This document shows positions 17,254 to 38,126 of a DNA stretch of 64,000 nt, in pieces. This stretch comes from Candidatus Micrarchaeota archaeon (GTDB lineage: Archaea; Micrarchaeota; Micrarchaeia; Anstonellales; Bilamarchaeaceae): assembly GCA_014730115.1 (NCBI GenBank), contig WJIU01000045.1, positions 14,085-78,084 of the forward strand. Reading direction: 5' to 3'. Under the pieces are notes generated by a model. It was given only the letters and a program-made list of their open reading frames with translations, made no database searches and was not told where the DNA came from. Made by a program: the position numbers and the translations under genes. Every line of letters begins with the position of its first letter. Positions within the stretch are counted from its first letter, which is position 1.

Positions 17254-17489
17254 TGGGCCTGCGGAGATAAATCCAGCCATGACGAGTTTACCTCGGAGCT
17301 TTCCCAAGGTCTGCCCCTGGAAGGACTGTCAAAAGGCTTTTGAACTCCGGACCTACGGCTTTCCTAGGCCAGCCAGTCCGTAAGGACTGTGCTAGAACGT
17401 GTCATATAAGACCGTCGCTCTAACCATTTCAGGCCCTGCCTGATAAAATCTTGAACAAATCAGTTCAAGGCTGACTGAGCTACAGGCCC
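17254..17489 (-). tRNA. tRNA-Ile(UAU) interrupted by three introns (D-loop, 37/38, T-loop)
   Basis: Hand-folded from the reverse complement. Acceptor GGGCCTG/CAGGCCC plus A73. D-stem GCTC/GAGC. Anticodon stem ACGGT/GCCGT with loop CTTATA|A. Variable AGGTC. T-stem CGGAG/CTCCG with loop TTCAAA|T. Inserted blocks are about 46 nt (17427-17472), 44 nt (17361-17404) and 71 nt (17268-17338). Mature length is 75 nt. Junctions are uncertain by 1-2 nt. Confidence 0.75.
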
Positions 17490-19198: not shown

Positions 19199-19309
19199 GG
19201 GCCCGTAGCTCAGCTTGGATAGAGCGACGCTCTCCTATTGCGTCCCGGAGGACAGGCTCCGGAAACAGCGGACAGGCGAAGGTCAAGGGTTCAAATCCCT
19301 TCGGGCCCG
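19199..19309 (+). tRNA. tRNA-Arg(CCU) with a 36-nt intron at the canonical 37/38 position
   Basis: Acceptor GGGCCCG/CGGGCCC plus G73. D-arm GCTC-AGCTTGGATA-GAGC. Anticodon stem ACGCT/GGCGA (one A-A mismatch, one G-U) with loop CTCCTA|A. AGGTC. T-arm AAGGG-TTCAAAT-CCCTT. Intron 19238-19273 contains the hairpin CCGGAG..CTCCGG. Confidence 0.78.
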
Positions 19310-23677: not shown

Positions 23678-24853
23678 TCAGGGCTGAACCCATTCGATTT
23701 CATAGTATTCATATTCGCTCCCGGGAAGTTCAATGGCCTTTATCACATAATAGGTGACGCTGCTCTCCCTGTCACTGATGCCTACAACCATTTCCAGTCC
23801 GAAGTGCTCGCATTCCGCGAGGGCTTTTGCCAGCTCCTCTCCGCCAATATATTCATCCTCGGTAAGGGAGTACATAAAATACCTGGGGGTTCCGTCTTTG
23901 GGAGTCTCTACCCCCCCCTTTTTCCGGTGATAGAGCAGAAAATCAAGGCGGGGGTTTTCAGAATCCACCTTTATCTTGGTTTTTTTGCCCGGGATTGCCA
24001 GGATAAATGTCTTTCTCACACTGTGGGCAACCCTTATGGCCCTTGCCCATTCTGAAATCAGCTGCTTGTGCTTGCGGGGAAACACATGGATTACGTGCTT
24101 GGAATGCATCCAGTCGGTGTTAGTACGCACCGGTGATGCTCCCGGGAAATAAAGCCGGAAATGGGTCCCGAATTTGAATCCGGTCTTCATCACATACCCC
24201 CTTTTTCTCCAGTCTTCATACACTGAATAGATGTCGTCAAAGAACTTTATCCTGCCCCTGGCAGTTTTCTGGATATCGGCAAGCTTTTTGTTGCGAAGTT
24301 GCAGACCGCCATGGCGCAGAAGAAAGATTGTCTCAAAGATGTCAAGCTTGGATATGTTTCCCCTGTGGGCAGCCTTGTAGGTTCCGAACTGGCCCATCCA
24401 GTATTTCTGATAAAGGTCCTTTCCGGTAGGGACATCATCGACAACTGTAAGCAGGTCATCCGCGAAAAACAGCCCGTCGAAAGAATAGGCATCCATCCTG
24501 AAATCAGAGCTTTCGTATTTGATTAGCACTGTTTTCCCATAATTGCCCTCCGCCTTTGCGGCGGCGCATATCATCAGGCCCTTGTCCCTCCAGTCCTTGT
24601 ACGTCAGATAGCGCGCAAGCAGCTTCTCGGCCTTCAGGAACAATGCTGCAATATCGTTGAAGGTATAGAGATTGCCCGCCTCATCGTAGCACCTGCCGTT
24701 CCTGATATCCATGATGTAAAGCGCTTCAACAGGTGAAAGATAGATTATCCCCTTTTTCATCTCTCCAAAAAATCCGTTTTGCAGGGACGAAACGTCTGGA
24801 GGCTCTTTTGCCGTTATCTGTCTGGTTTTCCGGTTCAGCTCAAGTTTTATCAT
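23678..24853 (-). CDS. endA: tRNA-splicing endonuclease, long single-chain multi-unit form
   Basis: 391 aa from MIKLELNRK. The catalytic unit reads YEDWRKRGYVMKTGFKFGTHFRLY .. HSKHVIHV .. SVRK (Tyr/His/Lys). A degenerate upstream unit reads YLTYKDWRDKGLMI. An extra C-terminal unit reads YFMYSL..FGLEMVVGISD. Confidence 0.85.
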   Translation of the reverse strand: MIKLELNRKTRQITAKEPPDVSSLQNGFFGEMKKGIIYLSPVEALYIMDIRNGRCYDEAGNLYTFNDIAALFLKAEKLLARYLTYKDWRDKGLMICAAAKAEGNYGKTVLIKYESSDFRMDAYSFDGLFFADDLLTVVDDVPTGKDLYQKYWMGQFGTYKAAHRGNISKLDIFETIFLLRHGGLQLRNKKLADIQKTARGRIKFFDDIYSVYEDWRKRGYVMKTGFKFGTHFRLYFPGASPVRTNTDWMHSKHVIHVFPRKHKQLISEWARAIRVAHSVRKTFILAIPGKKTKIKVDSENPRLDFLLYHRKKGGVETPKDGTPRYFMYSLTEDEYIGGEELAKALAECEHFGLEMVVGISDRESSVTYYVIKAIELPGSEYEYYEIEWVQP

Positions 24854-29080: not shown

Positions 29081-29199
29081 CGGGCCCGGGGGGATTTGAA
29101 CCCCCGACCCTCAGCTTAGAAGGCTGCTGCGCTATCCATTGCAGGAGCATCCGGCTGCCAACAGGTCAAGCCAAAAGGCTCAGGCTGCGCCACGGGCCC
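29081..29199 (-). tRNA. tRNA-Arg(UCU) with a 44-nt intron in the D-loop
   Basis: Acceptor GGGCCCG/CGGGCCC plus G73. D-stem GCGC/GCGC encloses 54 nt (AGCCTG|AGCCTTTTGG...CTGCAATG|GATA). Intact anticodon arm GCAGC-CTTCTAA-GCTGA. T-arm GGGGG-TTCAAAT-CCCCC. Intron is about 29137-29180. Confidence 0.8.
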
Positions 29200-36129: not shown

Positions 36130-37011
36130 TCAGCCCTGATAGGGCTGAACATCCACCAGTGTTACCTCAAATTTCAGGGTTTCATTCGCAAGATGATGGT
36201 TGGCGTCAAGAGTAATGTTCTGCTCGCTCTTGTTGACTACCCGGAAGGAAGTCGGAGCGCCGGTTTCAGGGTGGGGAAGCACATAGCTCGAATTAATCTC
36301 CAGCATGTATTCAATTGTTGCATTCAGATCGTGTAGCGTTGAGACCTGCTGGGGTATGCCGTTGAAGGTAAAGTTTGCGCCGGGGGTCAGTATGTAGAAT
36401 AAAGTCACATTCTCCCCGTCAATGCTGTCGATGAATACCGTTCCGTAGTCGGTGGGATAGCCGTCCCCGACCGATATGTTGATTCCCTGCTCCTCAAGGA
36501 AGGAGGCTGGGACAGTCTCATACAGGCTCTTGTTGTAGTACCGGGGAACCACCATCACCTTGGAGGGGTCGTAAGGTCCATAGCCCCTCTCCGGGTCCAC
36601 GTTAAACATAACCGTTTCGTTTACTTTCATGCCAATTACATTGATTATGAATCCCTTGATGATTCCCTGGTTGAAGACAACATCAAACATAAGGGGCTCG
36701 TAGGTGCGGTAGGGGTTATAGGTGCCTGCTTTCCGGGCAAGGGTCTCATTGCTGGTGTCAATGACCTCCTCATCTACCCAAAGAGTGTAATTCACCCAGA
36801 CAGTATCCCCCAAATCCACTGTATAATCAGGGGGGATTTCCATTTCGGTTTCATTTTCTTCTCCCGTGCCTGTATCGTTTTGGGAAGTGAAATTGTCGAC
36901 AGGCTCAATTTCAGGAAGTCCGTCTTCAGTTTCATTTTCCTGCATCTGTCCTTCATCCACGCATCCGAAAATAGCCAAACCTATCAGCAAAACTGCAATA
37001 ATCCGCTTCAT
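36130..37011 (-). CDS. secreted FKBP-type peptidyl-prolyl isomerase-like lipoprotein
   Basis: Lipobox-like LAIFGC. FKBP-like VWVNYTLWVDEEVIDTS..PLMFDVVFNQGIIKGF. Confidence 0.7.
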   Translation of the reverse strand: MKRIIAVLLIGLAIFGCVDEGQMQENETEDGLPEIEPVDNFTSQNDTGTGEENETEMEIPPDYTVDLGDTVWVNYTLWVDEEVIDTSNETLARKAGTYNPYRTYEPLMFDVVFNQGIIKGFIINVIGMKVNETVMFNVDPERGYGPYDPSKVMVVPRYYNKSLYETVPASFLEEQGINISVGDGYPTDYGTVFIDSIDGENVTLFYILTPGANFTFNGIPQQVSTLHDLNATIEYMLEINSSYVLPHPETGAPTSFRVVNKSEQNITLDANHHLANETLKFEVTLVDVQPYQG

Positions 37012-37034
37012 ACGTATCACATCGGGGAAAATGA

Positions 37035-37175
37035 TGGGGTCATGGAGATTGGCGGCCCTGCCGGCATCGGCCTTTCAGGCTTTCGAACTCCAATATGCAG
37101 GTTTCTACGGCCAAATGTGTCCACAAAAGGACGGGATCTGGAGCCTGCCGTACTACCTGGTTATACTATGACCCC
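37035..37175 (-). tRNA. tRNA-Trp(CCA) with two introns (anticodon loop and T-loop)
   Basis: Acceptor GGGGTCA/TGACCCC plus A73. D-arm GTAT-AACCAGGTA-GTAC. Anticodon stem GCAGG/CCTGC enclosing CTCCAG|35 nt|A. T-stem TGGAG/CTCCA enclosing TTCGAA|33 nt|T. Introns are about 37103-37137 and 37049-37081. Mature length is 73 nt. Confidence 0.75.
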
Positions 37176-37319: not shown

Positions 37320-38126
37320 ATGACTGCTCTTGACAAACTTATCAAAAGCGCAGAGGAAAGCAGGACCATCCTCTGCTTTGGGATAGACCCGGCAATAAAC
37401 CGCATGGCCCGGGAACCTGGGGAAGAGGAGCTTGAGGGGCTCATCACTGATTATTTCAGCAGCATTGTGGAGTCCCTCCTGGAGGAGAACGCAATCTCCG
37501 CAATCAAGCCCAATTACGCCTTCTTCGCGCAGTACGGTTTTGACGGCCTTCACGCGCTTGAGCACCTGATTGGGGACTGTAAAGAGGATGTGCCGGTAAT
37601 ACTGGACGTCAAAAGGGGGGATATCGGGAAGACCAGCGAGGCTTATGCAAAGGAGGCGTATGATTTCTGGGGTGCGGATGCGGCCACTATAAGCCCCTAT
37701 ATGGGAGAGGATTCAGTGAAGCCGTTTTTGAGGGAAGGCAAGCTTGCGTACCTTTTGTGCAGGACCTCCAACAAAGGGGCGAAGGACTTCCAAGAGTTGA
37801 AATGCGGGGATTCCATGCTTTACGAGAAGGTCCTGGAGAAGGCAATGGAATGGAACTGCGGCATTGTCGTGGGGGCGACCAGCGACGCAATCAGGAAAAT
37901 CGTGGAGCAAACCGGCAACAAAGTCCCGATGCTGATTCCCGGGATAGGTGCCCAGGGAGGCGATTTGGGCATGGTAATGGAAGCAATCGGGGAAAATGTT
38001 GCGATTCACAGGATTAATGCCTCGTCATCCATTGCCTATGCCCATGAAAAGCACGGTGGGAACCCGGTGGGGGCAGCATTGAAGGAAGCTGAAAACCTGA
38101 ACAAAAAAATAAGGGAGCATCTCTAG
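37320..38126 (+). CDS. pyrF: orotidine 5'-phosphate decarboxylase
   Basis: LDVKRGDIGKT and PGIGAQGG. Confidence 0.9.
   Translation: MTALDKLIKSAEESRTILCFGIDPAINRMAREPGEEELEGLITDYFSSIVESLLEENAISAIKPNYAFFAQYGFDGLHALEHLIGDCKEDVPVILDVKRGDIGKTSEAYAKEAYDFWGADAATISPYMGEDSVKPFLREGKLAYLLCRTSNKGAKDFQELKCGDSMLYEKVLEKAMEWNCGIVVGATSDAIRKIVEQTGNKVPMLIPGIGAQGGDLGMVMEAIGENVAIHRINASSSIAYAHEKHGGNPVGAALKEAENLNKKIREHL

Follow-up and report, generated by a model that had tools for sequence, protein, structure and literature searches.

The closest described counterpart of the gene reported here is found in ARMAN-2 (Candidatus Micrarchaeum acidiphilum), in which 56% of the tRNA genes are disrupted, tRNA-Pro(GGG) carries introns at positions 53/54 and 59/60, and tRNA-Cys carries a relaxed 59/60 intron that the epsilon2 enzyme cuts in vitro (Fujishima et al. 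2011, PMC3239211). Substrates of this enzyme do not need the strict hBHBh′ motif, with its 4-bp central helix and both flanking helices (PMC3239211). Position 59/60 is one of the listed non-canonical intron positions (PMC4090602), and genes that combine canonical and non-canonical introns are listed in reviews (PMC4090602, PMC4033280). Such genes, as well as 59/60 introns and a patchy pattern of gain, are also known from Thermoproteales and other archaea with (alpha-beta)2 endonucleases (Sugahara 2008; Fujishima 2010; reviewed in PMC4033280, PMC4090602). A further described system concerns tRNA-Trp itself, whose 37/38 intron in Pyrococcus (sR50) and Haloferax volcanii encodes a dual C/D methylation guide (PMC7994747, PMC4090602); guide-bearing Trp introns have a median length of 65 nt (PMC4090602).

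The gene examined here is a two-intron tRNA-Trp of a described type and involves no new mechanism. Like ARMAN-2, its host belongs to the Micrarchaeota, encodes an epsilon2 enzyme with the catalytic triad and the ARMAN-specific loop of the ARMAN-2 structure (4fz2/9w2k, PMC12397907), and has a relaxed 59/60 intron and multi-intron genes. The differences from ARMAN-2 are that the host tRNA is tRNA-Trp, that the relaxed motif is built differently (it has both flanking helices and a central helix of 2 of 4), and that 31 of 42 listed tRNA genes are interrupted by a hand count, versus 56% in ARMAN-2. Compared with Thermoproteales, the enzyme architecture is different, and whereas their introns form transposed families, no donor was found for the Trp T-loop intron. 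The gene shares its host tRNA and a 37/38 intron with the Pyrococcus and Haloferax system, and genes for C/D core proteins are present. However, the intron is only 35 nt long and has neither boxes nor antisense elements, and in the order to which this genome belongs the guide is free-standing or undetected.

The gene lies in a stretch of 64,000 nucleotides (the window) from a Micrarchaeota MAG of 1.15 Mb in 46 contigs, estimated to be 83% complete. It is a real tRNA-Trp(CCA) gene broken by two introns, located on the minus strand at 37175-37035 and 141 nt long before splicing. The parts of the gene and its neighbours are as follows.

37138..37175, minus strand: tRNA-Trp exon 1, 38 nt, positions 1-37 (5′ acceptor strand, D arm, 5′ anticodon stem, CCA anticodon and G37), from the ARAGORN cloverleaf and orthologues
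37103..37137, minus strand: intron 1, 35 nt, at the canonical 37/38 site after G37, with one internal hairpin and without C/D boxes
37082..37102, minus strand: tRNA-Trp exon 2, 21 nt, positions 38-59 (3′ anticodon stem, 4-nt variable region, 5′ T stem and T-loop to A59)
37049..37081, minus strand: intron 2, in the T-loop, 33 nt, best register 59/60
37035..37048, minus strand: tRNA-Trp exon 3, 14 nt, positions 60-73, with discriminator A73 and no encoded CCA end
36130..37020, minus strand: FKBP-type PPIase gene, starting 15 nt behind tRNA-Trp, a neighbour kept in the genus
37320..38126, plus strand: pyrF (OMP decarboxylase), divergent from tRNA-Trp, a neighbour kept in the genus

The joined exons amount to 73 nt and are called by ARAGORN as tRNA-Trp(cca) with the acceptor, D, anticodon and T stems all paired; 21 stem positions pair and there are no stem-breaking changes. 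A sequence-only reading of this DNA had, without naming the strand, proposed a two-intron tRNA-Trp with blocks of 35 and 33 nt and a mature length of 73 nt, and the cloverleaf obtained after their removal bears this out exactly. The unspliced gene is missed by both ARAGORN and Rfam. Exact matches to its 5′ exon are found in Candidatus Micrarchaeota MAGs.

No other Trp gene was recovered from the genome by covariance search, pattern search or a stem-based scan. An uninterrupted Trp gene elsewhere, which the sequence-only reading had named as evidence that would count against it, was thus not encountered in the 83%-complete assembly; because 17% of the genome is missing, single copy is not proven. 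The only other Trp match of the stem-based scan is a loose 380-nt construct attributable to chance. ARAGORN also makes ‘Trp’ calls on two contigs, C21 and C25, that prove to be one duplicated tRNA-Arg(CCG) gene: a Trp reading needs a 35/36 junction without an outer helix, whereas 37/38 gives CCG, and the intron-less orthologues in G015, G051 and G052 read CCG. The two copies (G000:C21:3013-3203 and C25:21443-21633) carry a 117-nt hairpin-rich intron and lie at contig ends within segments about 98% identical, either strain variants or a duplication. Because standard tools miss the Trp gene and mislabel tRNA-Arg(CCG) as Trp, the tRNA sets of Micrarchaeota MAGs can be relied on only after an intron-aware inspection.

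Throughout the genus, tRNA-Trp orthologues sit between pyrF and the FKBP-type gene at a syntenic single Trp locus. The 33 parsed genus genes, counting the window gene, invariably have a 37/38 intron (median 37 nt). A T-loop insert is present in 12 of them, best placed at 59/60 in six and at 58/59 in the other six, and the T-loop of 21 is intact; 15 carry a further insert in the 5′ half, nearly always in the D-loop. The most informative relative is G052, whose Trp exons equal those of the window gene save for one compensatory T-stem pair (U49-A65 versus C49-G65) and whose anticodon intron of 35 nt is near-identical, while the T-loop has no insert. Since these exons match yet the T-loop is intact, the 33-nt block is an insert, and the comparison with relatives that the sequence-only reading had recommended thereby supports it: intact T-loops in relatives mark the block as inserted. 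Intron 1 offers no such comparison, being present in 93 of 93 parsed Trp genes with no intron-less orthologue seen, and its boundary is set by the 7-nt loop and the canonical position. Several genus members (G012, G042, G046 and G049) have three-intron Trp genes, and in G015 (L021) the anticodon arm holds an additional insert of about 40 nt besides introns at 37/38 and 58/59.

T-loop inserts are rarer outside the genus, occurring in 0 of 14 parsed Trp genes from other family members, 1 of 12 from the rest of the order and 3 of 34 from other orders. A tree of three proteins places the window genome as sister to G024 (SH-aLRT 95), which has no T-loop insert, and the pair falls inside a clade of nine in which seven have none. 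This distribution fits a recent gain of the T-loop intron in the window gene. However, the neighbouring branch, G003, carries a 59/60 intron that looks unrelated and has the same 2-of-4 helix, which makes one gain followed by loss in G024 possible as well; the three-protein tree is compatible with either history.

Neither intron has the strict hBHBh′ motif (4-bp central helix and both flanking helices), but both have a relaxed motif in register with the splice sites. Intron 1 is a relaxed hBH, with an anticodon stem of 5 bp, a 3-nt 3′ bulge, a central helix of 3 of 4 and an intron-side helix of 0 bp. Intron 2 at 59/60 combines the T stem of 5 bp with a central helix of 2 of 4, in which U54 and U55 face C, and an intron-side helix of 4 bp. 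Registers 57/58, 58/59 and 59/60 give the same mature sequence, with poorer motifs at the first two; at 58/59 the central helix is again 2 of 4, the outer helix has 3 bp and there is no intron-side helix. When intron 1 is shuffled, a helix of at least 3 arises at a frequency of 0.058, which is weak alone, and when intron 2 is shuffled a helix of at least 2 with an intron-side helix of at least 4 arises in 0.6%, a criterion picked after seeing the data. The minimum-energy fold of the precursor (−52.5 kcal/mol, z −2.4) leaves the T-loop site as an open 7x7 loop and takes up the 5′ splice site of intron 1 in a helix, and for these reasons neither splice motif is part of the predicted ground state. 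The bulge-helix-bulge folding suggested by the sequence-only reading therefore yields relaxed motifs at both introns that the minimum-energy fold does not show. In the genus, the central helix of the anticodon intron is only 2 of 4 in 26 of 33 genes, and many of these introns lack an intron-side helix. Near its 3′ end (window 37103-37113), the Trp 37/38 intron has a 7-nt motif that recurs in 29 of 33 genus members and in 3 of the sister genus.

The enzyme expected to act on such motifs is encoded inside the same window, 12 kb from tRNA-Trp.

23678..24850, minus strand: epsilon2-type (three-unit, ARMAN-2-like) tRNA splicing endonuclease, 390 aa, matching PDB 4fz2 over its full length (E 1.2e-132)

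Its residues Y234, H249 and K280 correspond to the catalytic triad Y236, H251 and K282 of ARMAN-2, and Y158/K159 to Y160/K161 of the ARMAN-specific loop (residue numbers and roles of triad and loop pair from PMC12397907). The Tyr-Lys pair is kept in 30 of 30 genus homologues, and a homologue of the endonuclease is present in 38 of 40 genus genomes. The window genome also has an RtcB gene and two genes of the class Ic (Tyr/Trp) synthetase family. At L002:1303-1788 (G000:C33) the genome encodes a second, stand-alone protein of 161 aa in which a tRNA intron endonuclease domain is recognised (PF01974, E 7.6e-11), and most genus genomes show a second candidate besides the epsilon2 enzyme.

The gene is thus very probably a working tRNA-Trp(CCA) from which the epsilon2 endonuclease removes both introns and whose exons RtcB joins. 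The 141-nt precursor would be transcribed, and an epsilon2 dimer would bind each local motif independently and cut after the second bulge base on each strand, as ARMAN-2 work and archaeal tRNA splicing in general suggest. In this way the introns would be removed at the relaxed bulge-helix-bulge motifs at 37/38 and 59/60, RtcB would ligate the exons, and the CCA-adding enzyme would then complete the 3′ end. The 37/38 intron would be an old and short element of the lineage without a methylation guide. The T-loop intron would be one of many gains or losses at 58/59 and 59/60 tolerated by a broad-specificity enzyme, and probably has no function of its own.

Intron 1 of the window gene lacks C and D boxes as well as any antisense element, and at 35 nt is about half the median length of guide-bearing introns. 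The sequence-only reading had seen no RUGAUGA/CUGA pair in it, which holds, and the covariance search it advised agrees, with no C/D family found by Rfam and no match to our guide models. The same is true of its relatives: none of the 33 genus Trp introns has a C box, and none has an antisense element to positions 34/39 placed five bases upstream of a D-type box. Across the window's order, a C-like box and antisense stretch occur together in 0 of 59 parsed Trp introns; Trp introns from the class's other orders have a median length of 69 nt, and 31 of 34 have a C-like box with a stretch antisense to the anticodon. A C′-box/antisense/D-box guide pattern matches 59 of 121 genomes of the window's order (reversed control, 1), a handful of these by chance, and most of the matches inspected prove to be complete free-standing dual guides that, by the five-base rule, target positions 34 and 39. 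The contrast that the sequence-only reading drew with the euryarchaeal guide intron is therefore real but not gene-specific, as the whole order has the guide out of the intron. In Haloferax the intron guide is reportedly dispensable, by the title of one study.

Free-standing dual guides for Trp 34/39 are seen in many genera of the order (L205-L232; L263; L264), in one genome (L196; G029:C7:13950-14027, minus strand) about 60 nt behind the tRNA-Trp gene. By eye, the base beside the antisense core often matches the base (A or G) with which the intron of that genome begins. In the 40 genomes of the window's genus, our models detected neither an intron-encoded nor a free-standing Trp guide. These models, R1 (intron-encoded) and R2 (free-standing), recover held-out positives at 48 bits and at 39 and 32 bits, respectively; in the window genome and genus their best score is 21 bits, for a different guide, with nothing credible for Trp. 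Three of the eight pattern matches in the genus were viewed in context. A guide-like 22-mer on C23 is a chance match: it lies mid-frame in a GINS gene, where it surrounds a conserved Trp codon, and five relatives do not retain it. The intron-encoded guide model lends no support to intron 1 as a guide vestige.

The genome has genes for fibrillarin, Nop5 and an L7Ae-family protein, and the same search found what is likely a free-standing C/D guide directed at C34 of spliced tRNA-Leu(CAA) (L262; G000:C30:45996-46048, minus strand), so the C/D system appears to be in use. The Trp guide was likely lost in this genus, a reading that draws on negative searches in incomplete genomes. The candidate tRNA-Leu(CAA) guide is kept in several genus members (L238, L239, L242 and L244), and its C-box region has a hairpin like those inside local tRNA introns.

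Alternative readings of the locus differ in what becomes of the 33-nt block. If it were an unspliced insertion that had inactivated the gene, the working tRNA-Trp would be encoded in an unassembled part of the genome, as the weak central helix (2 of 4), the absence of the block from the nearest relative on the tree and an assembly only 83% complete might allow. We consider this very unlikely, since the exons are undecayed with 21 stem positions paired, the gene occupies the syntenic single Trp locus of the genus, the intron-side helix lies in register, and 11 other genus members have T-loop inserts of bulge-helix-bulge geometry, one of them (G003) with the same 2-of-4 helix. Assembly error is extremely unlikely as a source of the block, even though it is found in no relative and its junction has no exact copy in metagenome contigs: its position is precisely that of a known intron site, with a helix to match, the genome holds no second copy that could have been the source of a misjoin, and at the same site relatives carry inserts unrelated to it. 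Removal of the T-loop intron by a cut at 58/59 (or 57/58) instead of 59/60 would leave the mature tRNA identical. Three registers yield the same T-loop, and in six genus members 58/59 is where the Trp T-loop intron lies, with a 4-of-4 helix in five of these. In the window gene, however, 58/59 offers an outer helix of 3 bp and no intron-side helix, compared with 5 bp and 4 bp at 59/60, the central helix being 2 of 4 in both, and a cut there is unlikely.

The 3′ part of intron 1 might also have a role of its own, as a shrunken or divergent methylation guide or as a sequence signal for the endonuclease. The 7-nt motif, with its 29 of 33 genus members and 3 of the sister genus, is what suggests this, and in some members it resembles the end of an antisense element plus a D-like box. 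Yet a C box and antisense element are absent from all 33 introns, the intron-encoded guide models find no match in the window or in genus introns, the motif shows by eye no covariation with the anticodon stem, and shared ancestry alone may explain it; such a role is distinctly unlikely. The reading preferred throughout remains a tRNA-Trp spliced at 37/38 and 59/60.

The origin of the T-loop intron was pursued within the genome and beyond it. The genome has no second copy, and at 33 nt the intron gives sequence comparisons little power: kinship to 18 other T-arm introns is not significant (best single p 0.018), and a comparison with 29 intron-bearing genes of the genome reveals no match beyond chance (family-wise p 0.145). 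D-arm introns of tRNA-Ser and tRNA-Ile show a by-eye likeness that is not significant. Although these comparisons brought up no donor, the intron may have arrived by transposition from another tRNA, the route proposed for Thermoproteales. The block is found in no relative, and its junction has no exact match in metagenome contigs. A 25-nt match in G039 falls outside a tRNA.

The sequence-only reading had called T-loop introns unusual, which fails for this lineage: inserts of this kind are present in 12 of 33 genus Trp genes, T-arm introns in six tRNA genes of the window genome, and there are precedents in ARMAN-2. Three tRNA-Ala genes have 59/60 introns with the same geometry as Trp intron 2 and central helices of 4 of 4 and 3 of 4. 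About 42 tRNA genes are listed in the genome and 31 are interrupted, about three quarters by the hand count. Our dynamic-programming tRNA scan misplaced several junctions and missed some genes, tRNA-Trp among them, and was used for candidates only, with counts curated by hand.

Because T-loop introns are common in the lineage and the enzyme type has already been shown to cut them, the two-intron gene is a correct but ordinary finding, mostly of use for annotation and as test material. A broader reading, which we offer tentatively and hold to be somewhat less probable than its opposite, is that the genus epsilon2 enzyme routinely cuts motifs weaker than those tested so far (2 of 4, as in this T-loop intron and 26 of 33 genus anticodon introns), perhaps helped by the conserved 3′ intron motif, and that the genus ends a series leading from an intron-encoded through a free-standing Trp guide to its loss, with the C/D machinery retained. 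The weak motifs of a gene that is apparently single-copy and essential lend themselves to probing the lower limit of what an epsilon2 enzyme can cut. Within the genus, a single orthologous gene displays many independent states of T-loop and D-loop introns. Why tRNA introns persist is a question that the three states of the Trp methylation guide found across Micrarchaeota can inform.

Other interrupted tRNA genes were observed along the way. A tRNA-Ile(UAU) gene at window 17254-17489 (minus strand), missed by ARAGORN and Rfam, has three introns, in the D-loop, at 37/38 and in the T-loop at 58/59, the last with a 4-of-4 helix by eye; the UAU anticodon has been reported for ARMAN genomes (PMC3239211). 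In the same window, tRNA-Arg(UCU) at 29081-29199 (minus strand; labelled ‘tRNA-???’ by ARAGORN) has a 43-nt D-loop intron and tRNA-Arg(CCU) at 19199-19309 (plus strand) a 36-nt 37/38 intron. Two T-arm introns, at 53/54 and 58/59, interrupt tRNA-Pro(GGG) (G000:C7:11237-11382, plus strand) and echo the ARMAN-2 gene. The genes for tRNA-Ala(CGC) and tRNA-Ala(UGC) (G000:C35:1039-1146 and C44:12907-13014) share an identical 36-nt 59/60 intron, and position 55 is G, not U. The Trp introns of the window genome are free of A/T-run hairpin modules, recurring elements that make up many long tRNA introns of G000 and relatives (for example on C21, C32, C42 and C10; L014, L026 and L056) and are also present outside tRNA genes.
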